A stretch of DNA of 64,000 bases from Deltaproteobacteria bacterium (GTDB lineage Bacteria > Bdellovibrionota_C > UBA2361 > J135): positions 6,088-70,087 of the forward strand of contig JACKAH010000001.1 in the NCBI GenBank assembly GCA_020635175.1, given 5' to 3'. Each line of letters begins with the position of its first letter. The stretch's first letter is position 1. A program made the translations under genes and the position numbers. Of this stretch, positions 10,320 to 63,285 are shown in pieces. The notes beneath the pieces were generated by a model. The model was not told the origin of the DNA. It saw only the letters and a list, made by a program, of their open reading frames with translations, and did no database searches.

Positions 10320-13300
10320 ATGAAAAGCAGTCTAAAAATTCACGGTGCCTCTGAGAATAACCTCAAACACATTTCGCTTGAAGTTCCCCACGACCAATTA
10401 ACCGTAGTTACTGGACTGTCAGGCTCAGGTAAATCTTCCCTCGCATTTGGCACTATCTATGCTGAAGGACAGCGCAGATATATTGAAACATTCAGCTCTT
10501 ATACAAGACAGTTCTTTGATAAGATCAAAAAGCCTGATGTTGATCTGATACAGTACGTTAAGCCGGCAATTGCAATCCAGCAGAAGAATAAAATTCGCTC
10601 CTCAAGATCTACAGTTGGTTCAGTCTCTGGGATTAATGATTATTTGAAAATTTTATGGGCAAATCTTTCTGAATCTGTATGTCCGAGTTGTAGTATTCCA
10701 TTAAAAGCAGATACGCCAAGTATTGTAGCGGATATTTGCCTAAAAAAACTAAAAGAGGTTCAAACTTCAAGATACGCTATCTGCGCACCTATTCGTTTTG
10801 ATTTCTCTCAAAGCAAAGCTACCGTTGCAAAGAAGCAGAAAATAGAGATCGAACGGCTAAGAATCTTAGGATTTAGTCGCTTCTTAAATCCAGATAGCGG
10901 TGAAATTGTTGAGTTAGATACACCAAAGACTTTGGTGCTTACTCAGTCTGAAGAATTGCTGGTTCTAATTGAGCGCTTCTCTAATAAGAGCTCTTCACGC
11001 AAGCAGATAATTGAAGCTGTCGAGAAGAGTTATCAAGTAGCGAATAAAAGAGTTTGTCTTGTTAATCTTAGCAAGAACCAAGCTAGTAAAGTTAACTTCT
11101 TAACTGTAGTTAATTGTGATTCTGCTCCAAATTTAAGACGAGATAAACTTGAGTTAACTTTTTTTCGAAACGAGATAGGATGTGATTATTCAGATCTACA
11201 GATAAAGCCTGCTCGTCCCTCGTTGTTTAGTTTTAACCATCCTTATGGTGCGTGTGAGAGCTGTAGAGGATTTGGTTCGATTCTCACTATCGATCTTAAG
11301 AAGTGTATACCCAATCCAAGACTTTCAATTGAAGAAGGTGCAATTGCTCCTTGGGCGGTTGATTCTAGGCGTTGGGAAATGAATCAGCTGTTAAAGTTTT
11401 GCAAACACGAAAAGATTAAAATCGATATAGCCTGGAATGAGCTAAGTCAGGAGCAGCAAGCTCTCATTTTAGAGGGGAATTCTGATTTTAAAGGGCTGTT
11501 CTCTTGGTTTAAAAGGTTAGAGCGGAAAGCATATAAAACGCATGTAAGGGTGTTTTTAGCTAGATATCGTTCAGAAGAGCTTTGCGGAACTTGTAATGGA
11601 GCAAGGCTTAATTCAAGCGCATTAGCTTATAAGATAGATCAGAAAAGTATAGCTGATATCTGGGATGCCCCAATTAGCGAGCTTTTAAAACTAACTGAAA
11701 AATTAAGTTCTAAGATTGATCCAGAATCATATCAGTTAATCGAAGTTTATAAGACCTTGCTTGCAAGATTGCAGTTTCTAGAACATGTCGGACTTCCCTA
11801 TCTTACACTTGGGAGAAATTCAAACACTCTTTCTGGAGGGGAAACCCAGAGAGTTAATCTTGCTGCTGCCATTGGTAGCAACTTGGTTTCAACTCAATTT
11901 GTCTTAGATGAGCCTACAGTTGGGCTTCACTCAAGAGACACAGACAGATTGTTAACTGCAATTAGACAGCTTCAGGGTCGTGGAAATAGTATCGTAATGG
12001 TTGAGCATGATCTGGATTGTATCGCTGAGGCTGATCATATCATTGAGCTTGGTCCAAAAGCAGGTTCTGAGGGGGGAGAAGTTGTCTATGCTGGAGATGC
12101 AAGCCTTTGGAATGGGATTTCGTTAGCCCCTTATCTGACTTCACTTAGTAGGTTGACTAAGAGCAAAACCAAAGCGAATGAATATTTCGGGGTTAAGGGT
12201 GCTAAATTTAGAAATTTAAAAAACATAGATCTTAAAATTCCGATTGGTAGTTTCTCTTGTTTAACCGGTGTATCTGGTAGTGGCAAGACGACTCTCTTGC
12301 AGGAGGTGTTCCTAGGAAGCCTAGAGCTGTCCAAACGAGGTGAGGACTTTAGCCACTTATGTGAAGAGCTAGTTGGAATTGATAAATTTGAGCAAGTATT
12401 ACTAGTCGATCAATCGCCTATTGCTAAAAGTCCACGTGGAAATATCGCCACATATAGTGGTATTTGGAACGAAGTGCGGTTAATGCTAGCAGCTACAGAT
12501 GCTGCGATTAGTAGGGCTTTAGACAAATCGGCCTTCTCGTTTAATGTTGATGCTGGTCGATGTACAACTTGCCGTGGTGCAGGATTCATTAAAGAAGACA
12601 TGCAATTTTTAAGCGATGTCTATATTCCTTGTGAAGTTTGCTTGGGCACTAGATTTCAGGAACATGTGCTGGAAGTTGAGTATCAAGGTAAAAACGTAGC
12701 AGAGCTTCTTAACTTCACGGTCTCTGATGTAATAAAGTTTTTTGGAGAGAATAAGAAGATATTTGAATTAGCAACAATGCTTGAATCTCTTGGGCTGGGA
12801 TACTTACGCTTAGGGCATTCTCTAAGCGAGCTATCCGGTGGTGAAGCTCAGCGCCTAAAACTAGTTCCTTTTCTTGCTAAGAATTCTGAACAAAACATGC
12901 TCTTTTTATTTGATGAACCAACTACCGGCTTACATCTGCATGACATATCTAAGCTGCTTGAGGTATTCGAAGCAATTCGATCAAACGGACATACAGTCTT
13001 ATGTGTTGAGCATAACTTGGCTTTGATTTATGCAGCAGATTGGATTGTTGATTTGGGTCCTGATGGAGGATCGGGAGGTGGTGAGATCTGTGCTTGTGGC
13101 GATCCTAAAAAATTGGTTTCACAAAAAAAGAAGAGCTCTGAAACAATTAGTTTTTTAGAAAATTTTAAGAATGATCTTGCTCAGAAAGCAGAGGTGTTTT
13201 TAGCCAGACAAAAAAAGATAACTAGCAAGTTAGCTAAGCCGATTAAGCAACTTGAAATTCGTCATGCTAAAGAGAACAATTTAAAAGACATCAACGTTTC

Positions 13301-15719
13301 AATTCCACTTAACCAGATAGTTGCCTTCACTGGAGTTTCGGGATCAGGCAAATCAACAATTGCAAAGGATATAATCTATTCAGAAGGACAAAGAACATAT
13401 TTGGATTGTCTTTCTCCTTATGCACGCCAATATATACGAGAGTTAAAGCACCCTGATATAGAATCAATTAGCGGCATATTGCCTACTATATGTGTGCATC
13501 AACATACATTTCAGCCAAGCGAGCTCTCGACCGTCGGAACAATGAGTGAAATTTACAACTATTTAAGGTTGTTGTTTGCGAAGGTAGGAACACAATATTG
13601 TCCAGATCATCCAGATATGCCGATTGCTGCTTTCACCGCAAAGGAAATAGCGAGTGAACTCCAAGCAAAATATAAGACAAAGATTAAGATTCTTGCTCCA
13701 GTTGTGAGAGGCAGAAAGGGCTACCACAAGTCCATTTTTGAAAAGGCACTGGCGGCTGAGATCTCTGAAGTTCGAGTTGATGGTTTCTTTGGGAAACCCT
13801 CAAGCTACTTAGAAGGCTTAGAGAGAAACAAAACTCACGATATTGATTATGTTGTAGCACATTGCACCCCGAATAACGTTGATTTTGAAATACTCGAAAG
13901 TGTAATTACTCAAGCAATCACGTTAGGTTCCGGTACAATAATCGTATCTGAAAAAGATAGACAGCAAGTTTTTAGTACCGAAAGAAACTGCTCGATCTGC
14001 AAAAGGGGATTCCTAAAGCCTGACCCTGAGGATCTTTCATTTCGCTCACGTCGTGGGGTTTGTGATGATTGTGGAGGATTCGGTGATTACGAAGGTGGGG
14101 AGAAATGTCATTCTTGTTATGGTGCAAGATTGGGCCCCGTTGGTCGCTCAATTAAAATTGATCAACTCAATATTTGGGAGGCGAGTAAGCTAACACTGAT
14201 TAACCTTTTTGATTTTCTCTCAAAGCTAAAGATATCTGAGCGCGAGAAGGCTTTATCAGAGCAACTTATTTCTGAGATGCTAGCTCGAACTAAACTATTG
14301 ATTGATTTTGGGCTAGGCTATTTGTGTCTAAATCGTGATTGTCTGAGTGTTTCAACCGGAGAATTGCAAAGACTAAGGTTAGCAGCTGCTCTTGGCTCTC
14401 CCTTAAGTGGAGTAATGTATATCTTAGATGAACCATCGGTAGGCTTGCATCCGAATGATAATGCAAAGCTGCTTGACAAGTTGGCTTACGTAAAAGAACA
14501 GGGAAATTCAGTAATTGTTATAGAACATGATCCTGACACAATCCTTGCCTCAGATTATATCTTAGATGTCGGGCCAAGTGGTGGTCAGCATGGTGGAGAG
14601 ATAATTTTTTCAGGTACCATACAGGAATTTTCAAACTCTCAGACTTCGATTACAGCACAAGCTCTTTTTTCAGAACCTCCTCTGATAGAAAATTCTGATT
14701 CTAATTCAGTTTCAGAGCAGCTAGTAGTTGAAAGTGGTAGTTGTAATAATATCTTAAATCTTTCAGTGACGCTTCCTTTAAACAGTTTAATCTCTGTTGT
14801 TGGGGTTTCTGGAGCAGGTAAAAGCTCATTTGTACATGGAATAATTGAAGAAACTATTCTCAACGGAGAGTATAAACAGAATCGGTGGAAGTGCAAAGGC
14901 AACGTAGTTTCATCAACAATACCAATCAAGAGAGTTGTTTCTGTTGATCAAAAACCTATTGGAAAAACTTCTCGTTCAACGCCAGGTTCTTATTTTGGAG
15001 TTTGGGATGAGATACGAAAAGTCTTTGCAAAAACAATTGATGCTCAGGCTCGTGGTTGGAAAGCAGGTTATTTCTCGTTCAATACTGGTCAAGGTCGTTG
15101 TAGCGAATGTCAAGGAGTCGGTGAAATTAAACTAGAGATGAGCTTTTTGCCCTCAGCTAAGATTCCTTGTCAACGTTGCCAGGGAGGAAGGTTCAGCGAA
15201 GAAGCATGTTCGGTGCGCTACAATGGGTTAAACATAAGCGAAGCCTTAAGTATGACAATCGAAGAAGCTAAGGACTTTTTTGTTAATCACAAGAAAATAT
15301 ATCAGCCACTTTCAATAGCCTGCGATCTAGGTATTGGTTACATTACGCTTGGACAAAACTCTGCAACCCTTTCAGGTGGCGAAGCTCAGCGCTTGAAACT
15401 AGTAAGTGAGCTAACATCTAACTCTGTTGGACACACTCTTTACATACTGGATGAGCCGACAACAGGTTTACATATCAAGGATGTTTATCGTTTGATAAAT
15501 GTTTTACATGCACTTGTGCAGAAGGGAAATTCAGTTTTAGTTGTAGAGCACGACCAGCAGTGTATTCAAGCTTCGGATTTTGTACTCGAGTTTGGACCGG
15601 GTGCCGATCTTGAAGGTGGGGATGTTATCTTCAGTGGGAAACCAGGCCAGCTATACTCATCTAAGACTCCATGGGGAGAAATCTTTAAAGGAAACAGCCT
15701 TTCAAAGAAGCAAGCTTAG
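10320..15719 (+). CDS. uvrA: Tandem-fused double UvrA-like excinuclease ABC subunit A (1799 aa, four ABC ATPase domains)
   Basis: UvrA N-terminus GASENNLKHISLEVP...TGLSGSGKSSLAFGTIYAEGQRRYIETFSSY. Four Walker A sites: GLSGSGKSS, GVSGSGKTT, GVSGSGKST and GVSGAGKSS. Four ABC signatures: LSGGETQRV, LSGGEAQRL, STGELQRL and LSGGEAQRL. Walker B motifs LDEPTVGLH, FDEPTTGLH, LDEPSVGLH and LDEPTTGLH. Zn-finger Cys pairs are present. There is no stop codon between the two UvrA units. Confidence 0.85.
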   Translation: MKSSLKIHGASENNLKHISLEVPHDQLTVVTGLSGSGKSSLAFGTIYAEGQRRYIETFSSYTRQFFDKIKKPDVDLIQYVKPAIAIQQKNKIRSSRSTVGSVSGINDYLKILWANLSESVCPSCSIPLKADTPSIVADICLKKLKEVQTSRYAICAPIRFDFSQSKATVAKKQKIEIERLRILGFSRFLNPDSGEIVELDTPKTLVLTQSEELLVLIERFSNKSSSRKQIIEAVEKSYQVANKRVCLVNLSKNQASKVNFLTVVNCDSAPNLRRDKLELTFFRNEIGCDYSDLQIKPARPSLFSFNHPYGACESCRGFGSILTIDLKKCIPNPRLSIEEGAIAPWAVDSRRWEMNQLLKFCKHEKIKIDIAWNELSQEQQALILEGNSDFKGLFSWFKRLERKAYKTHVRVFLARYRSEELCGTCNGARLNSSALAYKIDQKSIADIWDAPISELLKLTEKLSSKIDPESYQLIEVYKTLLARLQFLEHVGLPYLTLGRNSNTLSGGETQRVNLAAAIGSNLVSTQFVLDEPTVGLHSRDTDRLLTAIRQLQGRGNSIVMVEHDLDCIAEADHIIELGPKAGSEGGEVVYAGDASLWNGISLAPYLTSLSRLTKSKTKANEYFGVKGAKFRNLKNIDLKIPIGSFSCLTGVSGSGKTTLLQEVFLGSLELSKRGEDFSHLCEELVGIDKFEQVLLVDQSPIAKSPRGNIATYSGIWNEVRLMLAATDAAISRALDKSAFSFNVDAGRCTTCRGAGFIKEDMQFLSDVYIPCEVCLGTRFQEHVLEVEYQGKNVAELLNFTVSDVIKFFGENKKIFELATMLESLGLGYLRLGHSLSELSGGEAQRLKLVPFLAKNSEQNMLFLFDEPTTGLHLHDISKLLEVFEAIRSNGHTVLCVEHNLALIYAADWIVDLGPDGGSGGGEICACGDPKKLVSQKKKSSETISFLENFKNDLAQKAEVFLARQKKITSKLAKPIKQLEIRHAKENNLKDINVSIPLNQIVAFTGVSGSGKSTIAKDIIYSEGQRTYLDCLSPYARQYIRELKHPDIESISGILPTICVHQHTFQPSELSTVGTMSEIYNYLRLLFAKVGTQYCPDHPDMPIAAFTAKEIASELQAKYKTKIKILAPVVRGRKGYHKSIFEKALAAEISEVRVDGFFGKPSSYLEGLERNKTHDIDYVVAHCTPNNVDFEILESVITQAITLGSGTIIVSEKDRQQVFSTERNCSICKRGFLKPDPEDLSFRSRRGVCDDCGGFGDYEGGEKCHSCYGARLGPVGRSIKIDQLNIWEASKLTLINLFDFLSKLKISEREKALSEQLISEMLARTKLLIDFGLGYLCLNRDCLSVSTGELQRLRLAAALGSPLSGVMYILDEPSVGLHPNDNAKLLDKLAYVKEQGNSVIVIEHDPDTILASDYILDVGPSGGQHGGEIIFSGTIQEFSNSQTSITAQALFSEPPLIENSDSNSVSEQLVVESGSCNNILNLSVTLPLNSLISVVGVSGAGKSSFVHGIIEETILNGEYKQNRWKCKGNVVSSTIPIKRVVSVDQKPIGKTSRSTPGSYFGVWDEIRKVFAKTIDAQARGWKAGYFSFNTGQGRCSECQGVGEIKLEMSFLPSAKIPCQRCQGGRFSEEACSVRYNGLNISEALSMTIEEAKDFFVNHKKIYQPLSIACDLGIGYITLGQNSATLSGGEAQRLKLVSELTSNSVGHTLYILDEPTTGLHIKDVYRLINVLHALVQKGNSVLVVEHDQQCIQASDFVLEFGPGADLEGGDVIFSGKPGQLYSSKTPWGEIFKGNSLSKKQA

Positions 15720-16010: not shown

Positions 16011-17996
16011 ATGGCCAAGGTCTTAGTGGTTGACGACGAAGAGAGTACCCAGAGTACAATTAAATCCTTCCTTGAAGTCGATGGACATAGCGTATCAGTC
16101 GCTGGAAGCTTCGAACAAGCAGTTCCATTTTTAAAAGATGAAAATATAGATTTAATAGTTACGGATATTTATTTAGGTAGACAGACCGGCCTGGATCTTC
16201 TGTCTGAAGCGAGAAAAGTTAAACCAAATTGCCCTGTTATTGTTGTAACAGGCAAGCCTAGTATTGATTCCGCAGTAAGTTGCGTTAGAAACGGAGCCTT
16301 TGACTATCTAGAAAAACCATTTGCTCAAGATGATTTTATACATACAACTCGTAGAGCAATCGCCTCGGTGCGCTATAAGAGTAAAGTTGAGAAGCGAGAC
16401 AAAGATCTTCTCCTCCAAAAGCAATTCCTTGAGAGTAAGTTAGCGAAGCAGTCACTCGAAATTGAGAGAGCCACTCGTGCTTTAATTCATAGCGAAGAGC
16501 GATACAGGACTCTTGTCGATACGATTTCTGAGATAATTATTGAGATCGACTCGCATAAGCGTTGTCTGTGGTGCAATAAATCTGCTTATGAGTTCTTTGG
16601 TGAAGAGATCTTTGGGAGATATTTTTTTGATATCTTGAGCGAAGACAATGATAGAGAGAGCATAGCGGATTACCTCAGGAGCATTACCCCAGATACTGAG
16701 AATAAAAGCTTTTTTCTGCAGGTCAAAGATAGCCAAGGTTCGATTAAAACCCTTTCTTGGATCTTTAGGAAGTTACCCACGTCTGTTTTAAATTCTTCAA
16801 GAATAATTGCAAGCGCTCGAGATATCACTGAAGTTATCAAGCTCGAACAGCAGATAAGACGTAAAGACAGAGTCGCAATGATTGGTCGATTAGCTGGTGG
16901 AGTTGCTCATGATTTTAATAATGTACTAGGAGCGATTTTAGCACAGGTAGGTGTTGTCAAAATTCCTGATTCGACAAGTGATGATAAGCTATCGGCTGCT
17001 ATAAAAATAGAGAAAGCTGTATATCGTGCAAAACAGTTAACCGACAAGCTTTTAAGCTTTGCCAAAGGTGGCAAAACCAAGATTTCAGCTTTTAACACTC
17101 ATCGAGTAATTGAGGATGTTGTTGAACTTTTAGTTAGAACTTTAAGTAAGCAAGTCTGCATAAGTTTATCGCTTGATGCTAAGCATTGTACGATTCGTGG
17201 AGACTCTTCACAAATTTATCAATTGATTCTTAATTTAATATGTAATGCACGTGATGCAATAGTTGCAAAGAAATGTCGTGGACGTATTGATATTTCTACA
17301 TCCCTCAAAAATTTACAGGTAGATAATTGCTATGATCTTCCTGTAGGAAATTATTTGAACGTTGAAATCGCTGATACTGGTTGTGGAATTACAAAGGAGC
17401 ACCAGCAATTAATCTTTGAGCCATTCTTTTCTACTAAGGAAGAACAAGAGCGGGTTGGAATAGGGCTCGCAGTTGCTAAGGAGGTGGTGGAAAACCATGG
17501 TGGCCACATATCTTTTGCTTCTCAATCAGGAATTGGCACACACTTTGAAATTTTATTGCCTGTTGAGACTGCAGATGCACCAGAAAAATGCGAGAGCTCT
17601 GAAGAGATAGTCTCTGGCAAAGGTAGAATCCTGATTGTTGATGACGAGGATCTCGTTCGTTCTTCTTTTTCTTCTCTGCTTCAGGCCTTAGGATATGAAG
17701 TTAGCACTGCAGAGAGTATTCAGAATGCAATTGACATAATCAATCAAGAGCAAGATTTTGATTTGATCGTTCTAGATGTCGGAATGCCTGGACTTGATAC
17801 CACAACGCAATATGAAAGAATTGTAGAGGTTTCCCCCGATACTAAGATACTTTTAACCTCAGGTTATGGATTGACTGCTAATGCTCAAAAGATCATGCAA
17901 CTTGGTGCCATTGGCTTTGTTCATAAACCATGCTCTTTGCCAGAACTATCGAAAACTATTGCAAGAGTAATATCTGAACCAAGGGATGTAAGCTGA
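16011..17996 (+). CDS. Hybrid sensor histidine kinase / response regulator (REC-PAS-HisKA-HATPase-REC)
   Basis: N-terminal REC (VLVVDDEEST...DLIVTDIYL). H-box GGVAHDFNNVLGAI. HATPase_c (ADTGCGITKEH, GIGLAVAKEVV). C-terminal REC (ILIVDDEDLV...DLIVLDVGMPG). Confidence 0.8.
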   Translation: MAKVLVVDDEESTQSTIKSFLEVDGHSVSVAGSFEQAVPFLKDENIDLIVTDIYLGRQTGLDLLSEARKVKPNCPVIVVTGKPSIDSAVSCVRNGAFDYLEKPFAQDDFIHTTRRAIASVRYKSKVEKRDKDLLLQKQFLESKLAKQSLEIERATRALIHSEERYRTLVDTISEIIIEIDSHKRCLWCNKSAYEFFGEEIFGRYFFDILSEDNDRESIADYLRSITPDTENKSFFLQVKDSQGSIKTLSWIFRKLPTSVLNSSRIIASARDITEVIKLEQQIRRKDRVAMIGRLAGGVAHDFNNVLGAILAQVGVVKIPDSTSDDKLSAAIKIEKAVYRAKQLTDKLLSFAKGGKTKISAFNTHRVIEDVVELLVRTLSKQVCISLSLDAKHCTIRGDSSQIYQLILNLICNARDAIVAKKCRGRIDISTSLKNLQVDNCYDLPVGNYLNVEIADTGCGITKEHQQLIFEPFFSTKEEQERVGIGLAVAKEVVENHGGHISFASQSGIGTHFEILLPVETADAPEKCESSEEIVSGKGRILIVDDEDLVRSSFSSLLQALGYEVSTAESIQNAIDIINQEQDFDLIVLDVGMPGLDTTTQYERIVEVSPDTKILLTSGYGLTANAQKIMQLGAIGFVHKPCSLPELSKTIARVISEPRDVS

Positions 17997-55124: not shown

Positions 55125-55217
55125 GGAGAGGTGACCGAGAGGCCGAAGGTGCTCGATTGCTAATCGAGTGTACGGTCAAAAGCCGTACCGCGGGTTCGAA
55201 TCCCGCTCTCTCCGCCA
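55125..55217 (+). tRNA. tRNA-Ser (anticodon GCU)
   Basis: GGAGAGGTGACCGAGAGGCCGAAGGTGCTCGATTGCTAATCGAG...CGGGTTCGAATCCCGCTCTCTCCGCCA. It has a long variable arm. Confidence 0.85.
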
Positions 55218-55246
55218 TGATATTCGCAATAGGGAAAGTGCTTGTT

Positions 55247-55702
55247 ATGCTTTGTCCCCACCCTAAATTTATCGATGCTTCCATATCTCAAGCCAAGCTG
55301 GCTTTGCAAAATGGTGAAGTTCCTGTTGGTGCCGTTGTTGTTTATGATGGTGAGATTATATCAGTTGCACATAACGAAGTTGAAATGCGCAACGATGCGA
55401 CTGCCCATGCCGAGGTTTTGGCAATTCAACGAGCTTCAGAAGTACTTTCGAATTGGCGCTTAACTAACTGTACTTTGTATGTAACACTTGAGCCTTGCAC
55501 AATGTGTGCTGGAGCTATTAGGGCGAGTAGGATTTCTAGAGTAGTTTATGGTGTTTCAGATCCACAGCGTGGTGCTTTTGGGTCTTTGTATGACCTTTCA
55601 CAGGACACAAGGCTTGGATCGGTTCCAGATGTCTTTGCTGGGGTGCAGGAAAATGAGTGTAAGCAGCTTTTGGATGTTTTCTTTAGTAAGATTCGTGGCT
55701 AA
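55247..55702 (+). CDS. tadA: tRNA-specific adenosine deaminase TadA (A34 of tRNA-Arg ACG)
   Basis: CDA zinc motifs HAEVLAIQRA and PCTMCAGAI. The upstream part of ORF 55157.. lies inside the tRNA-Ser gene. The start is taken as the Met of MLCPHPKF at 55247, and the Met of MIFAIGKV at 55217 is an alternative. Confidence 0.8.
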   Translation: MLCPHPKFIDASISQAKLALQNGEVPVGAVVVYDGEIISVAHNEVEMRNDATAHAEVLAIQRASEVLSNWRLTNCTLYVTLEPCTMCAGAIRASRISRVVYGVSDPQRGAFGSLYDLSQDTRLGSVPDVFAGVQENECKQLLDVFFSKIRG

Positions 55703-55766: not shown

Positions 55767-55859
55767 GGAGAGGTGGCCGAGCGGTTGAAGGCGCACGCTT
55801 GGAAAGCGTGTGTGCGGCTTATACCCGTACCGCGGGTTCGAATCCCGCTCTCTCCGCCA
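55767..55859 (+). tRNA. tRNA-Ser (anticodon GGA)
   Basis: GGAGAGGTGGCCGAGCGGTTGAAGGCGCACGCTTGGAAAGCGTG...CGGGTTCGAATCCCGCTCTCTCCGCCA. Confidence 0.85.
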
Positions 55860-55883
55860 TCTGCCTGCCGCAGGCAGGAAGAT

Positions 55884-55915
55884 GCACAGAGCGGGATTCG
55901 AACCCGAACCACTGT
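55884..55915 (-). other. Inverted tRNA 3'-end fragment (T-arm plus acceptor strand), not a complete tRNA
   Basis: The plus strand reads gcacagagcgggattcgaacccgaacc. Its reverse complement ggttcgggttcgaatcccgctctgtgc has the canonical T-loop TTCGAAT. No matching 5' half is present. It follows the hairpin ctgcctg-ccg-caggcag, which directly abuts the CCA end of tRNA-Ser(GGA). Confidence 0.5.
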
Positions 55916-56029
55916 TCTAGTCCATTTGATTAGCCCCCTTGATACTGTTACATTTTCTCCGTGTTGGTGGGATTTCTAAATTTTTGAGTGTTTTTAGACT
56001 TAAATTTAATGGCTACGAGGGGTGGTACT

Positions 56030-56881
56030 ATGAAGTGGTTAGTGGCGTTACTGGTGCTTTTATCTTCGGAATTGATTCCGACTACTATATTTGCACAATC
56101 GAATAACCTATTTAATTTCTGTGTTAAGCGAACAATTCGTGTTAACGGCACGAAGATGATCAAAAGAATCGCTACAGTTAGAACTACTAGTTGTAAGAAA
56201 TCTGAACGTCTCTTCTTTCAAGCAGATAGCCAACTGTTGCTTTTAAATGGCCTGAAAGCTGATGTTGAGACTAATACTCAGCTTATCAATTTACTTTCAA
56301 CAGACATTAATTCAATCACTTCCCTGAATCAGGGACCTGAAGGTCCACAAGGTCCAATTGGTCCACAGGGTCCTGCTGGAGTACAAGGTGTTGAGGGCCC
56401 ACAAGGACCTCAAGGAGTTAAGGGTGATACTGGAGCTCAAGGCCTTCAAGGAATACAAGGTATTCAAGGCGAGAAGGGAGACAAAGGTGATAAAGGCGAT
56501 CAGGGTGCTCAAGGCTTGCAAGGAATACAAGGACCGCAAGGAGTTCCTGGCCCACAAGGTCCTCAAGGTAGCGCCGGTATGTACGACGCCGAGTCTGGCA
56601 GAGTCGTTGCTTGGACCTCTACACCAGTTTATTCATGTGAAGCTGTTGCATCATTAGTTTGTGCTCCAACTGAAGTTCTTCTTCATTCAACTGTTAGAGC
56701 AAAATATATCCCTAGTGGTACAGATGTTGATGCATTTATCTCTTCATCATTTATTACAGACCCTAACAATTCAGATATCGTTACAGGTGTAACTTATCGA
56801 GTGAAAGAGGCTTTAAATGGTGCGTGTTCTGCAACACCTGCTTTTAAAGTAACAATTGAAGCGCTCTGCGTACCTCGATAA
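56030..56881 (+). CDS. Secreted bacterial collagen-like (Gly-X-Y triple-helix repeat) protein with a C-terminal globular domain
   Basis: RBS gagggg. Signal peptide [23 protein letters not shown]. About 28 Gly-X-Y triplets ([43 protein letters not shown]...[10 protein letters not shown]). Confidence 0.75.
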
Positions 56882-57122
56882 TTAATACTTGATGCACTTG
56901 GGTAGAAGTTATTCCTAGTGCATCGAGAACACTAACAAGTTCTGTTAGTGGGCTAGGTGTACCAGGCAAGCTATGCGTATGTGGATGCTTGGTCTTTATC
57001 ATGTATGGAGAACAAGCATCCACGCACGCCCTGACGAGGGTTTCTCCTCCAGTATTTGTGCCGCGTCTTATCGCGTGGATTAGTATTCGTCGCACAGAAC
57101 TGGTTCCCTAGGTTAACCAATC

Positions 57123-58109
57123 ATGAGAACACCGATCCTCCTGAGCTTCGTGCTCATCGTGGCGGCCTGCCATCATGGCGGCAGCTCGCCTTCCAAGCCC
57201 AAGAACCCGAACAAGGTCGTGCTCGAGACGAGCATGACCCTGCCGCAGACGCCGTTCCCCATGATCTCGGCGCGCTACACGACCAAGAAGGGTACCCCGA
57301 CCTTCGGGACCTTCATGTTCAACAGCACGCCGCCCGACGCGCTGCACCTCGTGCAGAGCGACTACGACGGCTGGGTCGACTTCATCCTCGACTCGACCTA
57401 CTTCGGTCCGTGGGAAGTGCAGGCGCAGGACGAGTTCGGCGAGAACATGACCGACGTCGCCGAGGTCGATGTGCTGCCGTACGAGTACGCGCTCTTCGCG
57501 AGCTCGACCATCCTCGATCCGAACACCTCGCTCGAGATCGAGGGCTGGGCGGTCAGCGGCAACGGCTTCTACTTCATGCCCGAGAGTGGCAGCGCCGATC
57601 TGTGGGGCTTCGACTCCGTGGTCGGTGAGTGGATGCCGGTCGTGGCCGATATCCCGGTGCCGAGCATGCTCGATCTGAGCGGTGTCGACTTCAGCGGCTT
57701 CGAGCGAGAGGCGGGCTTCCTGCTGATCGGCGAGAGTTCGCTGACGAACGCCACCAGTGCGGTGATCGAGATGAACCTGCCCGACCTGAACCTGGGCGGC
57801 TGGGGCGTCAACGTCTCGCAGAGCGGTGAGAACATCGAGATCGGCAACGGCATGATGGCTCGCAAGGGCGATCCGTTCCACTTCGAGCTCGAGTCGCTCA
57901 ACGGCTGGATGCACGGCAGTGCGTTCGCGACCGCTCTGCACGTCGAGAGCGGTGAGAGCGTCACGCTCGCACTCGCTGCAGGCCAGAACGGCTTCGACTG
58001 GGAGGACTGGCCGCAGTCGACTGCTGCCGGCCTGACCGGGCACTTCCGCATCGGCTTCGAGATCGACGGCGAGCAGGTCAACTTCAACCTGTTCCGACTC
58101 GAGCCCTGA
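57123..58109 (+). CDS. High-GC (foreign codon usage) lipoprotein, unknown function
   Basis: Lipobox LSFVLIVAAC. GC3 is near-saturated (ctc/ctg/gcc/ggc/acg codons throughout), in a genome of about 40% GC. Opposite-strand ORFs of similar length are GC-shadow artefacts. Confidence 0.6.
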   Translation: MRTPILLSFVLIVAACHHGGSSPSKPKNPNKVVLETSMTLPQTPFPMISARYTTKKGTPTFGTFMFNSTPPDALHLVQSDYDGWVDFILDSTYFGPWEVQAQDEFGENMTDVAEVDVLPYEYALFASSTILDPNTSLEIEGWAVSGNGFYFMPESGSADLWGFDSVVGEWMPVVADIPVPSMLDLSGVDFSGFEREAGFLLIGESSLTNATSAVIEMNLPDLNLGGWGVNVSQSGENIEIGNGMMARKGDPFHFELESLNGWMHGSAFATALHVESGESVTLALAAGQNGFDWEDWPQSTAAGLTGHFRIGFEIDGEQVNFNLFRLEP

Positions 58110-58138
58110 TCGCAGGAGAGCATCATGAAGTACGTGCG

Positions 58139-58171
58139 AGCGTCTGGGGTAGCACCGGCTCCCCAGACGCT
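58139..58171 (+). terminator. Hairpin downstream of the high-GC lipoprotein gene (terminator-like, no T-tract)
   Basis: A perfect 11-bp stem agcgtctgggg-tagcaccggc-tccccagacgct. Confidence 0.35.
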
Positions 58172-58498
58172 CCTGCGCGTCGTCTCTCATGACGAATTTG
58201 GTTTATGAATGAAAAAGGATTTCAGTAAGCTTGCCAGGTACATCGTACCGATTTTTACATTTCTTCTATAAATCTAAGTACTTGTTGCTTGATTCTGATG
58301 AGACCCAAGTGCCATTGCTTCTCATAACAATAATGTTCTGATCTTTGTATTAACCCATCTGAGTAAACCTATGTAAGTAAAGGTTTATGGTTGGTGCCTG
58401 TTTGAGTTTTTGATTCAACCAGGCATCCGCCTACAAGTTCACGCTCCTTCATCGGAGCACCATTCTACCGTTCCCGTTCCTCAACCCCGGAGTTCCCA

Positions 58499-59311
58499 AT
58501 GCGTGCTAAGTACGCCCTGCTGCTCTTCGTGCTGCTGATGTTCGCTGCTGCCATCTGGCGCTTCGACCTCATCGGCACGACCAACAGTGTCCCGAGTGCT
58601 CAGGCCATCGCCTCGGAGCACGACCGTGCTCTCGAGCAGATCGATCAGCTTAGCGACGCTCAGCAGTTCGAAGAGCTGAGCAACAACCAAGAAGATCCCG
58701 CTGAGCAGGCCAAGGCCTGGGAGCTGCTTCAACGAATCCAGAACGAAGGGCAGCAACGTCAGCGCGAGAAGAAGCTCGCCAACGAGTCGAAGATCCAGAA
58801 CACGCTCGTCGAGGAGACCGACACGAGCATGCTCAAGCCTGGACCCTCGCTGCCGAATCTCGAGGACGATCCTGTCCTGTGCCTCTTCGCTCTGCTCGAG
58901 CATCGCATCGCGGTGCTCGCTCCCGAGACTGGCAGAGCAGGGATCTACTCCAATCTGCGTGATGGCGTGACCTGCGTCGTCACGAACAACAGCAGAGCGC
59001 TGATCGCTGCCTTCGGCGACGTCTTCCTCGATGGTGGTGAGTTCACGCTGACGAGCTTCAAGGCTCTGATGCTGACCCATCGAGGAACGGACCAGCAGTT
59101 CGACCCGCAACAGGCCTCGGCCTACGCGGTGATCAAGCACTACGAGAGCCTCGACCCCGGCTGGGCATCGCGGCGTCTGCAGAGTTCTGACTACCTCGAG
59201 CGCTTCCAGGCGCTCGTGTTCCCTCAGTACGAGCAGCCGACGCAACCGCAACGCGAGCTCGAGCAGAACGTGGCGCTGCTGCTGCAGTCCTGGTCTCGCA
59301 GCATGCGCTGA
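58499..59311 (+). CDS. High-GC (foreign codon usage) signal-anchored or secreted protein, unknown function
   Basis: RBS ggag 8 nt upstream. N-terminal hydrophobic segment MRAKYALLLFVLLMFAAAIW. The same extreme GC3 as 57123..58109. It is separated from that gene by an AT-rich spacer of about 300 bp. Confidence 0.55.
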   Translation: MRAKYALLLFVLLMFAAAIWRFDLIGTTNSVPSAQAIASEHDRALEQIDQLSDAQQFEELSNNQEDPAEQAKAWELLQRIQNEGQQRQREKKLANESKIQNTLVEETDTSMLKPGPSLPNLEDDPVLCLFALLEHRIAVLAPETGRAGIYSNLRDGVTCVVTNNSRALIAAFGDVFLDGGEFTLTSFKALMLTHRGTDQQFDPQQASAYAVIKHYESLDPGWASRRLQSSDYLERFQALVFPQYEQPTQPQRELEQNVALLLQSWSRSMR

Positions 59312-59327
59312 GCACCAGCGGGAACGG

Positions 59328-59386
59328 CGCGCGGGCGGGCGAGTGACTCAACGAGTCCTCTCCGCCCGCGCGGTTCGTTTCTTTGG
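59328..59386 (+). terminator. GC-rich hairpin with T-tract (intrinsic terminator) ending the high-GC cassette
   Basis: cgcgcgggcgg ... ccgcccgcgcg stem with an internal gactc/gagtc sub-stem, followed by gttcgtttctttgg. Confidence 0.5.
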
Positions 59387-59412
59387 TTTAGAACTTACAT
59401 AGGTTGCTCTAC

Positions 59413-60789
59413 CTATTGTTCCTTTCTTGAAACTATCCTTCGAAGTGTTGACCTATCCATCTGTAGATCTATAGCGGCTTTTACTTGGTTGCCATCATGA
59501 CGTGCGAGTGCTTCTTCTATTAGTGTTAGTTTAAAGTCTTCAACGAGATCATGAAAAGAAGCCTCTGAGTCAGCAGAAAGTTTTTTAGGAGTAAACATTA
59601 AATCATCGGCAATAATACTTACTCGCGATTCAAACTGTGCTTTGTAAGCACCACCTTCAACAATTGCTTGTAATTCCCTTATATTTCCAGGCCAATTGTA
59701 AGCTTGAAGTTTAGCGATAGCGTCGTTCTCTAAAGAAATTACCGAAACTTTTTCAGCAGATCTTAACTTCTCTAAAAAGAATTCAGCTAAAAGCGGGATG
59801 TCCTGCTTTCTTTCTCGTAACGCTGGGATGTGAATTCTAGCATGTGCAATACGGTGGTAGAAATCTTGCCGCACTTTCTTTTCGCTAACGCACTGATCAA
59901 TGTCTTGATTTGAGGCACAGATAAGTCTGAAATCAGATGCAATTTCACCATTTGAGCCGAGTGGTCTGAAAGATTTTTCTTGAAGCACACCAAGTAAACT
60001 GACCTGTGTTTCAAGAGGTAGTTCATCAATTTCATCTAAAAATAGTGTGCCAGTATCAGCTTCAACTAAGAGACCTGATCTGTCAGCATCAGCTCCGGTA
60101 AAAGCACCTTTTTTGTGTCCAAACAGATCGCTATTAACTAAGTCAGGTGTAGAGAAATTAGGCTGGTACCTAACGTATTTACCTTTGCTTCGTTTGCTAA
60201 GTTTATGAATTGCTTGAGCACAGAGTCCTTTGCCGGTTCCTGTTTCTCCTGTGATAAGCAGGGGTTGATCGTTAGAGGCAGCGTATTCGATCTCTTTTCG
60301 AAGTTTTTTAATTGCATCACTTTCGCCAATTATATTCGTAAGGCTGACGCTATCTTTAGATAGTTGTTCGTAGTTTCGTCTCAGATCAGATTGTTTGATG
60401 CCATCTAAGATTAGAGCTGAAAGGTGCGAGATATCAGGGGGCTTTTCTAGAAAACTCGCTGCGCCATTTTTAAGACAGGTTACTCCTAACTCAGGTGTTC
60501 CGTACCCAGTTAAAACTATTACACGACAAGTTGAGTCGTGGTTTAAGATTGATCTTAGCAGCTCAAATCCGCTTTCAGGACCGATGGCTTCATCGATACA
60601 GAGATCTTGTACAATTACTTGTGGTGAATATTCGTGCTGTAAACTTAGGCCCTGTTCTTTGTTTGTTGCGATATGTATCGGGTGAGTAATCCCTGCAGCC
60701 TTTAGTGCTCGAGCTAGACTTAAAATAGCGTCACTATCGTCATCAATTAATAGGATATTCTGATCGCCTGACATGTCAGGTTTATACAC
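59413..60789 (-). CDS. Sigma-54-dependent response regulator (NtrC family)
   Basis: REC domain. AAA+ sigma-54 activation domain (ITGETGTGKGLCAQAIH, GAFTGA, ESFRPLGS). C-terminal HTH. Confidence 0.85.
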   Translation of the reverse strand: MYKPDMSGDQNILLIDDDSDAILSLARALKAAGITHPIHIATNKEQGLSLQHEYSPQVIVQDLCIDEAIGPESGFELLRSILNHDSTCRVIVLTGYGTPELGVTCLKNGAASFLEKPPDISHLSALILDGIKQSDLRRNYEQLSKDSVSLTNIIGESDAIKKLRKEIEYAASNDQPLLITGETGTGKGLCAQAIHKLSKRSKGKYVRYQPNFSTPDLVNSDLFGHKKGAFTGADADRSGLLVEADTGTLFLDEIDELPLETQVSLLGVLQEKSFRPLGSNGEIASDFRLICASNQDIDQCVSEKKVRQDFYHRIAHARIHIPALRERKQDIPLLAEFFLEKLRSAEKVSVISLENDAIAKLQAYNWPGNIRELQAIVEGGAYKAQFESRVSIIADDLMFTPKKLSADSEASFHDLVEDFKLTLIEEALARHDGNQVKAAIDLQMDRSTLRRIVSRKEQ

Positions 60790-60796
60790 TATTTAT

Positions 60797-61390
60797 CTAG
60801 TTTAAAATAGTAAACTGACCATCGATTAAATTTACCTTTAAATCATGGGCGATTAGAATTGCATCGATGATTGGGGGGTAGGGTGAATCGAATTGAAGTT
60901 GTTCACAAAAGAGAGAGGTAAAAGATTCAGTCTTAATATCTTTCTCTAGCCTGACTACATTTAGAGTAATTTTTGAATCAAGTACTGCGGTGATTTTGCA
61001 GTTCTCAAGATTCGCTTTGCTGCAATAATCACTCAGCGTGTGGGCGATTAGTTGAAGAGCTAAGATGAACTTTTGCTTATCAAGATTGTAGCTTTTGCTT
61101 TCTGAAACATTTACCGCAATCTCTGGAGCGTTTTGTAGAATTAAATCTTTTAACTCTTCTGCGTTTAGGCTTTCAATTTTAACTTCACCAGAGCCTAGCT
61201 CTCCACAGAGTTTTAGGATTTCATTTATCTCACGTACCTTTCTTAATCCCCTCTCTGTTTCCCCAGGCTCAAGTTGGGATTGGAAGTAGCTAAGATCGTT
61301 TGAGATAACAGACAGGGGTGTCCGTATCTTGTGTGCTAGGGCTCTGGTTAGAGCATGTATCAGGCGAAGAGTTTCTATCTTTTGCTCCAT
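60797..61390 (-). CDS. HisKA-only histidine-kinase-like / ChpT-like phosphotransferase (no ATP-binding G boxes)
   Basis: H-box LAHKIRTPLSVISNDL. The remaining ~120 aa lack DxGxG and GxGLGL motifs. It lies 8 nt upstream of the sigma-54 regulator on the same strand. Confidence 0.45.
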   Translation of the reverse strand: MEQKIETLRLIHALTRALAHKIRTPLSVISNDLSYFQSQLEPGETERGLRKVREINEILKLCGELGSGEVKIESLNAEELKDLILQNAPEIAVNVSESKSYNLDKQKFILALQLIAHTLSDYCSKANLENCKITAVLDSKITLNVVRLEKDIKTESFTSLFCEQLQFDSPYPPIIDAILIAHDLKVNLIDGQFTILN

Positions 61391-61821: not shown

Positions 61822-63285
61822 ATGTCAGATATTACTTTTAAATCCGTCTCTGAGATTCGTCAGGGTCTAGCTAGTAAAGAGTTCTCTTCGGTTGAGATAA
61901 CAAAAGCTTATCTTGATCGCATTGAGCAGCATAAGGACTTGAATGCATTTGTTTCCCTCTCTGCTGAAGATGCGCTTGCTGATGCAAAATTAGCAGATAG
62001 AAAAATTGCATCAGGAGAAGCCTATTCGTTGACTGGTGTTCCGATTGCTCTGAAGGACTTGATGCTATCTAAGAATCAAAAAGCCTCAGCTTGTAGCAAT
62101 ATCATTTCTAATTTTATCTCACCCTATGATTCTACGGTTGTTGTTAAACTTAAGGAAGCGGGTGCGGTGATTGTTGGTAAGACTAACATGGATGAGTTTG
62201 CCATGGGGTCTTCAAATGAAAATTCTGCGTTTGGCCCGGTTAAGAATCCTTGGAACAAAGAGTGTGTTCCAGGAGGATCTAGTGGAGGATCGGCGGCTGC
62301 TGTTTCTGCTCGTCTCGTTCCTCTTGCACTTGGAACAGATACTGGTGGCTCCATTCGGCAACCTGCTTCATTGTCAGGAATTGTTGGTATTAGACCAACC
62401 TATGGTCGAGTAAGTCGCTTTGGAATTATTGCATATGCCTCTTCGTTAGATCAGGTCGGAGCATTTGGAAACAGTGTTAAGGATTGTGCTGAGGTACTTG
62501 AAGTTATAAGCGGACATTGTTTGAAGGATTCGACCTCAATGCAACTGGAAGTTCCTGAGTTTTCTTCGTCTCTCGACTCAGCAATACAGGGCTTAAGGGT
62601 CGGGGTACCAAAGGAATATTTTATTGAAGGAATTGATCCAGAGGTTAAGGTGTCAATTCAAGCAGCGTTAACTAAATTAGAATCTCTTGGTGCAGAGCTT
62701 GTTGAGATATCACTTCCGCACACTGAGTACGCACTAGCAACTTATTACATTATTGCGCCTGCGGAAGCTTCTTCTAATTTAGCTCGTTATGATGGTGTAC
62801 GGTATGGAAAGCGTGCAGAAAAAGCATCTGATCTGCTTGAACTTTATATGCAGACTCGCTCAGAAGGATTTGGTGACGAGGTTAAGCGTCGAATCATGAT
62901 AGGGACATACGTATTATCTACAGGGTACTACGATGCATATTATCTTCATGCTCAAAAAGTTAGGCGACTAGTTAAGCGAGATTTTGATTTAGCCTTTGAC
63001 GAAAAGTGCGATCTGATAGCATGTCCAACTGCACCAACAACGGCATTTAAGATCGGTGAGAAGGTAAACGATCCTCTGCAGATGTACTTGAATGATATCT
63101 TTACAATACCTGTTAACCTAGCTGGATTACCTGGTATGAGTGTTCCATGTGGACTCGATGCAAAAGGACTTCCAATTGGACTTCAACTGATAGGTAAACC
63201 GTTTGATGAATCTACGCTCTTCCGTGTTGGTCATCATTTTGAGCAAGCTACTGAGTGGCATAAACAACTTCCACCGCTTTCGTAG
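61822..63285 (+). CDS. gatA: Asp/Glu-tRNA amidotransferase subunit A
   Basis: Amidase signature [13 protein letters not shown]...[12 protein letters not shown]. 487 aa. Confidence 0.9.

Follow-up and report, generated by a model that had tools for sequence, protein, structure and literature searches.

Two gene-sized GC-rich blocks of probable foreign origin, each within an interrupted palindrome, in a low-GC bacterial genome

Gene blocks A and B

Two neighbouring genes of extreme GC content, referred to here as A and B, were analyzed in a 64,000-nt stretch (positions 6,088 to 70,087 of the forward strand) of contig JACKAH010000001.1. The contig, of 222,674 bp, belongs to the metagenome-assembled genome (MAG) GCA_020635175.1 of a 'Deltaproteobacteria bacterium', in which the genes are annotated as H6619_00300/00305. 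The MAG may stem from the study of activated sludge by hybrid assembly in PMC8518188 (PRJNA648801). The whole 64-kb stretch is called the window, and all positions are counted from its first letter. The genes lie in two blocks of GC-rich DNA, block A at about 57006/57030-58195 and block B at 58426/58432-59378. The blocks occupy the gap between two convergent genes of host composition, a collagen-like gene and a sigma-54 response-regulator gene. Each block contains one gene, a leader of ~70-115 nt and a trailer of ~70-85 nt with a GC-rich hairpin. The features of the blocks and of the DNA between them are as follows.

57030 to 57122, plus strand: 5' leader of gene A; GC about 0.52; small hairpins at 57036-57049 and 57061-57078
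57123 to 58109, plus strand: gene A, encoding a predicted lipoprotein precursor of 328 aa, an ORFan (MCB9029465.1) that starts with MRTPILLSFVLIVAAC; GC content at the third codon position 0.90
58136 to 58194, plus strand: terminator region of gene A; GC-rich hairpin at 58136-58172, small hairpin at 58178-58194 and T-rich tail
58243 to 58360, no strand: core of the spacer between the blocks; host-like, the whole spacer (58196-58425) having 35% GC
58432 to 58498, plus strand: 5' leader of gene B; GC about 0.575; GGAG 8 nt upstream of the ATG
58499 to 59311, plus strand: gene B, encoding a 270-aa ORFan (MCB9029466.1); GC content at the third codon position 0.79
59322 to 59376, plus strand: terminator hairpin of gene B; GC-rich, followed by TTCGTTTCTTTGGTTT

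The GC content of the window is 41.4%, and 300-nt segments with more than 55% GC start solely within 56951-57951 or 58401-59201. The GC contents of the first, second and third codon positions (GC1/GC2/GC3) are 0.58/0.44/0.90 in gene A and 0.66/0.40/0.79 in gene B. The GC3 of the 48 other open reading frames (ORFs) of at least 120 aa in the window was 0.337 ± 0.037 (range 0.265-0.429), which gives z scores of 15.2 for gene A and 12.3 for gene B. GC1 and GC2 of the two genes are closer to the host than GC3 is (z = 0.4-3.2). Leucine is encoded only by CTC and CTG, apart from 6% CTT in gene B. Isoleucine, phenylalanine, tyrosine and lysine are encoded by ATC, TTC, TAC and AAG in 100% of cases, while the host favours ATT, TTT, TAT and AAA. 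CTG/CTC, GCG, CCG and GGC, which are rare codons of the host, are used in both genes. The results showed that genes A and B are compositionally alien, and no drift towards the composition of the host was detectable. At the two genes, the GC of a 600-nt stretch exceeds the locus mean by 0.23. In 595 kb of unrelated low-GC loci, which serve as a rough baseline of rarity, no 600-nt segment was 0.15 or more above its own locus mean.

The order GC3 > GC1 > GC2, taken as the sign of a coding frame, holds in the plus-strand frames. Three-base periodicity is strong (GC3 of 0.90 vs GC2 of 0.44 in gene A), is confined to a single frame and agrees with the limits of the ORFs. Long antisense ORFs at 57108..58190 and 58481..59251 have their highest GC at the first codon position and were rejected as by-products of GC-rich coding DNA. 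Because these antisense ORFs peak at GC1, the plus-strand frames were taken as the genes.

The GC enrichment includes the non-coding flanks of both genes: 0.52 in the leader of A (57006-57122), 0.63 in the region 3' of A, 0.575 in the leader of B (58426-58498) and 0.75 in the region 3' of B. The spacer (58196-58425, 230 nt) has a GC content of 0.352, compared with 0.372 in 20 host intergenic regions, and no significant similarity to its core was found elsewhere within the window. Because the spacer has the composition of host intergenic DNA, the locus contains two foreign blocks, sharply bounded and gene-sized, rather than one cassette. With its leader, its ORF and its GC-rich terminator hairpin, each block makes up a complete transcription unit. 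A search for sigma-70 promoters within the blocks gave none that was convincing. Control of A and B by the adjacent sigma-54 activator is unsupported, since no -24/-12 element was found upstream of either gene. Gene A has no Shine-Dalgarno sequence, which is uninformative because most host genes also have none. Most of 30 host ORF starts carry none of GGAG, GAGG or AGGA within 25 nt upstream, and the lineage seems to rely little on Shine-Dalgarno pairing.

The initial annotation of this DNA, made from the letters alone, had described a two-gene cassette of foreign high-GC composition with almost exclusively G/C-ending synonymous codons, AT-rich flanks and spacer, and a GC-rich hairpin terminator for each gene. 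Its description of the composition agrees with our data: the GC3 of both genes, the only DNA above 55% GC in the window, the codon choice, the spacer (35.2% GC, host intergenic DNA 37.2%) and the hairpins 3' of both stop codons. The windowed GC and GC3 comparison that it had suggested separates both genes strongly from the 48 host ORFs. The foreign genes therefore stand, while the single cassette does not, because 230 nt of host-type DNA separates the blocks.

Both ORFs look real and appear to encode exported proteins. The N-terminus of protein A (MRTPILLSFVLIVAAC) has the form of a signal peptide with the lipobox L-I-V-A-A-C at residues 11-16, in which V-A-A-C (residues 13-16) satisfies the pattern [LVI][ASTVI][GAS]C, and a tether rich in Gly, Ser, Pro and Lys follows. 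Single-sequence AlphaFold2 models reached a predicted local distance difference test score (pLDDT) of 34 for protein A and 47.6 for protein B, both too low for fold searches. The body of protein A is mostly beta at low confidence. In protein B, helices at residues 2-25, 34-61 and 67-105 have a pLDDT of 72-83, and the C-terminal part was unmodelled. Protein A is probably a lipidated, membrane-tethered lipoprotein with a beta-rich body, possibly glycan-binding. Protein B would have its N-terminal helix as an anchor in the inner membrane, followed by a coiled coil in the periplasm and by a globular domain. With the two proteins, which are unrelated to each other, the host would gain two further components of its envelope or surface.

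Neither protein matched a family in Pfam, NCBIfam, PHROGs or PADLOC, and protein A had no Pfam hit even at E <= 1. Among protein sequences of the PDB, protein B had no match. Residues 121-168 of protein A weakly matched one CROP/cell-wall-binding repeat of the large clostridial toxins TcsH/TcdA (best E = 1.4e-3, others >0.1). Protein A was considered as a CW_binding_1/CROP repeat protein (~20-residue GW...YYF repeats) and rejected, as the match is single and weak, there is no Pfam hit and no internal repeats were found in A. At the level of sequence, A and B are ORFans, without relatives among about 15 billion predicted proteins. The initial annotation had predicted a lipoprotein with the lipobox LIVAAC for A, a signal-anchored protein for B and no recognisable domain in either. 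The lipobox and the hydrophobic N-terminus of B are present, and the family and PDB-sequence searches of both proteins gave nothing usable. Its suggestion of an effector/immunity or adhesin role found no support, and neither did a role as toxin.

Inverted repeats that bracket the blocks

Each gene is bracketed by an inverted repeat whose arms lie in the AT-rich DNA beside the block. Inside the left arm of each repeat is a further hairpin, and inside the right arm is a copy of the 9-mer TTTGGTTTA. The elements are listed below.

56958 to 56972, plus strand: outer arm a (TGTACCAGGCAAGCT), in AT-rich DNA left of block A; pairs with 58228-58242
56975 to 57029, plus strand: inner hairpin H_A, with 21-nt arms and a 13-nt loop, across the AT-to-GC transition; the 3' arm carries CAAGCATCCAC
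58197 to 58205, plus strand: first copy of TTTGGTTTA, at the GC-to-AT transition right of block A
58228 to 58242, plus strand: outer arm a' (AGCTTGCCAGGTACA), which pairs with arm a
58361 to 58378, plus strand: outer arm b (GAGTAAACCTATGTAAGT), whose core at 58366-58378 pairs with 59393-59405
58393 to 58428, plus strand: inner hairpin H_B, at the AT-to-GC transition left of block B; the 3' arm carries CAGGCATCCGC
59382 to 59390, plus strand: second copy of TTTGGTTTA, at the GC-to-AT transition right of block B
59393 to 59409, plus strand: outer arm b' (ACTTACATAGGTTGCTC), ending 3 nt before the stop codon of the response-regulator gene

The repeat a/a' has 15 nt with 1 mismatch (shuffle P = 0.0026, empirical P = 0.005). 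The repeat b/b' has a perfect core of 13 nt and extends to 17 bp with one bulge (shuffle P = 0.0006, empirical P = 0.0027). The repeats scored 25 (a/a') and 26 (b/b'), and the empirical P values were obtained with 3000 random ~1 kb host segments with 200-nt flanks. Both scores together were reached in 0 of 5000 shuffles of the spacer. When the blocks were removed, the reconstructed empty sites folded as long stems (z = -3.0 and -4.6), and the stem of arm b reached 17 bp in the fold of its site. A small terminator-like hairpin with a T-run at 58237-58259 overlaps arm a'.

The same order was found in both units: outer arm, inner hairpin, GC-rich block, TTTGGTTTA and second arm. The scheme can be written as a TGTACCAGGCAAGCT-like arm, a GGATGCTTG...CAAGCATCC hairpin, TTTGGTTTA and the complementary arm. 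The two plus-strand copies of TTTGGTTTA are the only ones in the window, each just 3' of a block, and CAAGCATCCAC in H_A and the related CAGGCATCCGC in H_B are likewise the only two such loci. The left units (a + H_A vs b + H_B) align better than shuffled sequences (P = 0.008). The right units gave P = 0.02-0.05 against shuffles (0.023 in the unit alignment). The motif CA[AG]GCATCC alone is within chance for two 100-nt regions and counts only inside the unit alignment. The two pairs of arms differ in sequence; compared by eye, pair a/a' and pair b/b' have about 10 of 16 aligned positions in common. Within the window, neither the arms nor the unit recur, one chance match in coding sequence aside. 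This apparent extra copy at 16220-16258, an arm-like sequence with TAAACCAAA, is part of a receiver-domain coding sequence and was rejected as chance.

Origin and route of entry

The initial annotation had proposed a high-GC source, and the composition and codon usage of the two genes fit bacteria of ~65-70% GC. The per-codon log-likelihood of A+B was -0.84 to -0.88 under loci of Myxococcota (Hyalangium, Archangium and Cystobacter, 69-70% GC) and Gemmatimonadota (about 65% GC), which fit about equally well, vs -1.54 under the host; this panel consisted of arbitrary high-GC loci with no Actinobacteria or Pseudomonas and cannot name the donor. The codon-usage distance between A and B was 0.93, below that of 74% of same-genome high-GC gene pairs and 93% of different-genome high-GC pairs. 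Because the two genes are closer in codon usage than most gene pairs, they are likely to come from one donor lineage of ~65-70% GC, or else from two with the same codon dialect. In our view, the blocks are probably two single-gene islets that the host acquired recently, by horizontal transfer, from one donor lineage of high GC.

The recipient is weakly placed near Oligoflexia/Bdellovibrionota by sequence comparison, as its GatA is 63-67% identical to its best matches, which span many lineages and, where named, include Oligoflexia and Bdellovibrionota MAGs as well as Dadabacteria and Desulfuromonas. The window encodes type IV pilus genes, FliL, an M23 peptidase, Ccm, ClpB and GatCAB. The host is possibly a Bdellovibrio-like predator, and a prey-derived origin of the blocks, which the initial annotation had raised, is speculation. 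Predatory bacteria have been described to receive horizontal transfers from sources that differ in codon bias (PMC5760749).

The blocks probably entered without an integrase directed at tRNA genes, without an integron and without a transposase encoded at the locus. At low confidence, foreign DNA may have been captured within pre-existing interrupted palindromes of the convergent intergenic region. Each block would then occupy the loop of its own palindrome, 3' of the inner hairpin and 5' of TTTGGTTTA. Because both blocks hold the same position in their palindromes, we consider such capture the likeliest route, again at low confidence. It could have occurred through repair of breaks at intergenic repeats that form hairpins or cruciforms, or the DNA could have been inserted by a structure-specific enzyme whose gene lies elsewhere in the genome. 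Cleavage of hairpins and cruciforms by SbcCD-type nucleases is established in E. coli. On two examples, the data give hints of palindrome-targeted capture. It is conceivable, though we hold it to be unlikely, that the units are an undescribed gene-capture site which takes up whole promoter-to-terminator cassettes at a fixed internal position, with its enzyme encoded elsewhere. Such a site would resemble integrons or mobile insertion cassettes (MICs) in function and differ from them in architecture, and it would here hold two unrelated genes of a high-GC donor.

The main rival explanation is that 56958-58242 and 58361-59409 are themselves MICs, i.e., non-autonomous transposons with a passenger gene between terminal inverted repeats, moved in trans by a transposase from another part of the genome. 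Elements of this kind would have taken up the GC-rich genes. A 13-17-bp inverted repeat does bracket each gene, and the subterminal parts are weakly alike, with an inner hairpin containing CA[AG]GCATCC[AG]C and with TTTGGTTTA. As in the MICs described for Tn3-like and other elements, and in miniature inverted-repeat transposable elements (MITEs) with passenger genes (PMC4337579, PMC5444012), inverted repeats enclose a passenger without transposition function, and no transposase lies inside. The blocks differ from these elements in that no target-site duplication was found, the flanks being GGGCTAGG and TCGTACCG in one case and CCCATCT and TACCTATT in the other. In addition, the two arm pairs are not identical, and neither another copy of arm or unit nor a transposase was found in the 64 kb. 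AT-rich ends with a GC-rich passenger would still need a separate capture event. We regard transposition of this kind as unlikely. Ends of the IS200/IS605 type were also considered and rejected, as the hairpin on the left is not related to that on the right.

Inverted repeats of 13-17 bp flanking genes of exported proteins could also belong to invertible segments, in which an invertase flips each gene and makes the surface proteins phase-variable. Without a convincing internal sigma-70 promoter, expression could be driven by a promoter outside the segment. Against this, none of the genes in the 64 kb encodes a recombinase, the two repeat pairs differ in sequence, one orientation is on record (a single contig of the Logan assembly, 2 samples), and the foreign composition is left unexplained. 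Inversion is thus a quite improbable explanation.

The initial annotation had noted that the genes lie next to a tRNA cluster. Three tRNA-Ser genes and one tRNA-Arg gene are located 1.2-2.5 kb left of the blocks, a tRNA-like 3' fragment lies at about 55880-55925 (minus strand), and the inserts are of single-gene size. The blocks could accordingly be cargo of a genomic island targeting tRNA-Ser or cassettes of a chromosomal integron, which resemble them as tandem single-ORF foreign units with folded palindromic DNA. No integrase, transposase, recombinase or phage gene was found by Pfam among all 55 ORFs of at least 120 aa in the window, and no intI or attI was found within it either. The blocks are not flanked by direct repeats of a tRNA 3' end. 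The only long tRNA repeat (19 nt) has inverted orientation and is located to the left of the collagen-like gene, a gene of host composition that separates tRNA-Ser(gga) from block A. Because there is no integrase or att repeat and a host-like gene lies between, the proximity of the tRNA genes is probably incidental. A regular-expression search of the three flanks on both strands found no attC pair (RYYYAAC...GTTRRRY, 45-150 nt apart), and there are no R''/R' core sites. The blocks also differ from integron cassettes in that their inverted repeats enclose the ORFs, while attC sites follow them and lie between ORFs, and in that each unit has its own leader and terminator. An integrase- or integron-borne island is therefore highly improbable. 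Sites of the Xer/dif and attC types were considered and rejected, as no matching cores were found.

A chimeric assembly, in which high-GC reads were wrongly joined into a low-GC contig, had been raised in the initial annotation, and the genome is indeed metagenome-assembled. Logan is an independent unitig-based assembly of the raw short-read run SRR12358676. Its contig SRR12358676_2871954 (2842 bp, 2 samples) is 100% identical to 55862-58703 of the window. It begins at the end of a tRNA-Ser gene, covers the collagen-like gene, block A and the spacer, and includes the first 205 nt of gene B. Of the four AT/GC junctions, three were in this way recovered exactly by a second assembly. This contig stops inside gene B at 58703, where there is no obvious repeat, and the stop could reflect a drop of coverage in GC-rich DNA or a strain-level branch. 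Partial products that Logan contigs might encode at the right junction of B were not found, and neither the full-length B protein nor the full response regulator is on record. The break within gene B and the right junction of B, which was not recovered independently, speak for a chimera. On the other side, a chimera needs four false joins that frame two intact genes with leaders and terminators and host-like DNA between them, and the identical 2842-bp contig spans three of the junctions in 2 samples. Misassembly is largely excluded, and a chimera behind the blocks is very unlikely, with a probability that we rate as minimal.

That the genes are native with extreme codon bias, or that the DNA is GC-rich and non-coding, is a next to negligible possibility: GC1 and GC2 are nearer the host than GC3 is and low for high-GC genomes, and neither protein has a homologue, but the one-frame periodicity fits the ORF limits, the N-termini are those of a canonical lipoprotein and a membrane-anchored protein, the codons used are the rare ones of the host, and the non-coding flanks are GC-rich too.

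Several points weigh against recent acquisition from a high-GC donor, which we nevertheless favour. No donor homologue of A or B was found in any database searched, and because of this the transfer is deduced from composition alone. Searches of 5.8 billion protein clusters returned only the self match for A and for B, and no match was found for either in IMG/VR or in phage and plasmid collections. In an exhaustive HMMER search against 1.84 billion representatives, A had no more than two weak matches (E = 6e-5 and 6e-4); both reflect a short repeated beta-strand motif in giant surface proteins and were rejected as evidence of homology. It is odd that a GC3 of 0.90 implies recent transfer, yet no relative exists among about 15 billion proteins. 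Furthermore, GC1 and GC2 of A and GC2 of B are among the lowest 3-9% of genes with similar GC3 in high-GC genomes. The search for an empty site found no close relative genome among 185,579 GTDB species genomes and JGI metagenomes. No independent sequence was recovered for the fourth junction, on the right of B. If one donor supplied both genes, the host-like spacer between them calls for either two insertions at a distance of 230 nt or a rearrangement afterwards. As for the palindromes, the similarity between the two units is weak, their boundaries were picked after inspection, and there are two adjacent instances only.

In those same genome collections, the best full-length match of the response regulator was 38% identical and partial matches reached 47%, all of them paralogues only. 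The relative with the closest GatA (67%) shows no synteny at the site, and no alternative allele of the site is on record.

Compositionally atypical islets are regarded as recent transfers that have not yet drifted to the composition of the host, in the sense of the amelioration model of Lawrence and Ochman. The two blocks are like such islets in that they are small, have sharp bounds and a GC and GC3 far from the host, carry no mobility genes and lie in a convergent-gene gap. Most recently acquired or ORFan bacterial genes are AT-richer than their host, whereas the blocks are 22 points GC-richer. They also differ in that they have no donor homologue and form two single-gene blocks 230 nt apart, each in an interrupted palindrome. 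Compositionally alien islets are therefore a known kind of locus, and the GC-rich direction and the total lack of relatives are unusual.

The minimal mobile elements of Neisseria are alternative cassettes between conserved genes, exchanged by transformation and homologous recombination. They resemble the blocks as gene-sized foreign cassettes without recombinase genes between conserved chromosomal genes, following the concept as used in PMC3082526 and PMC1538595. They are defined by differing cassettes in different strains, whereas blocks A and B are known from one genome. To our knowledge, they have not been described as sitting in palindromes. Insertion at palindromes itself is familiar, as IS1397 and ISKpn1 insert in repetitive extragenic palindromic (REP) units and class C group II introns insert after terminator hairpins. 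These inserts are similar in lying between palindrome arms or at a fixed position relative to a hairpin, and different in being autonomous and encoding a transposase or reverse transcriptase, while the blocks carry ordinary-looking protein genes. Palindrome bracketing with a common internal insertion point matches no capture system tested or considered here.

If the favoured reading is right, a high-GC bacterium has very recently passed genes to a low-GC lineage that branches deeply, is poorly sampled and is possibly Oligoflexia/Bdellovibrionota-like, and gene-sized foreign DNA can enter a chromosome without recognisable mobility machinery nearby. If palindrome bracketing is general in this genome, it would point to structure-directed gene capture, either at breaks in cruciforms or hairpins or by means of a novel site-specific system. 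Such capture would be of wider interest for the entry of orphan genes into bacterial chromosomes.

Neighbouring genes and other observations in the window

The left neighbour of block A is the collagen-repeat gene at 55988..56881 (Pfam Collagen, E = 4e-16). Its product has a signal-like N-terminus, and its GC3 of 0.265 is the lowest in the window. On the right, the sigma-54 response-regulator gene occupies 59413..60789 on the minus strand. Directly upstream of it, a 197-aa protein is encoded at 60797-61390 (minus strand). It has an H-box-like HKIRTPL but neither a Pfam hit nor an ATPase domain, and may be either the remnant of a kinase or a phosphotransfer protein that stands alone.

In the tRNA region, the gene order is tRNA-Ser, tRNA-Ser, tadA and tRNA-Ser. 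The listed tadA-like deaminase ORF (55157..55702, TTG start) overlaps tRNA-Ser(gct) at 55125-55217; the tadA Pfam domain starts at residue 37, so the true start lies further in. The tRNA-like 3' half at 55880-55925 (minus strand) is located 29 nt downstream of tRNA-Ser(gga), and ARAGORN makes no call there. Within it, 55888-55906 is a perfect 19-nt inverted copy of the T-arm/acceptor sequence CGGGTTCGAATCCCGCTCT, which is common to two tRNA-Ser genes. This half could be a truncated tRNA gene left as the scar of a rearrangement, or a terminator-like partner of the tRNA 3' end. Matches to the Rfam family 'Plastid-psbl-rps4' below the gathering threshold at 55160-55214 and 55811-55856 (minus strand) are the antisense of tRNA-Ser genes and no separate element.

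Within gatA, 63126-63216 shows seven substitutions in 91 bp between the MAG and a Logan contig of the same run, and the rest of that 3490-bp contig is identical to the MAG sequence. The cluster suggests strain microdiversity or a short recombination tract. At 10320-15719, the window encodes a protein of 1799 aa, about twice as long as a normal UvrA, that combines the DNA-binding and interaction domains of UvrA with several ABC ATPase modules.

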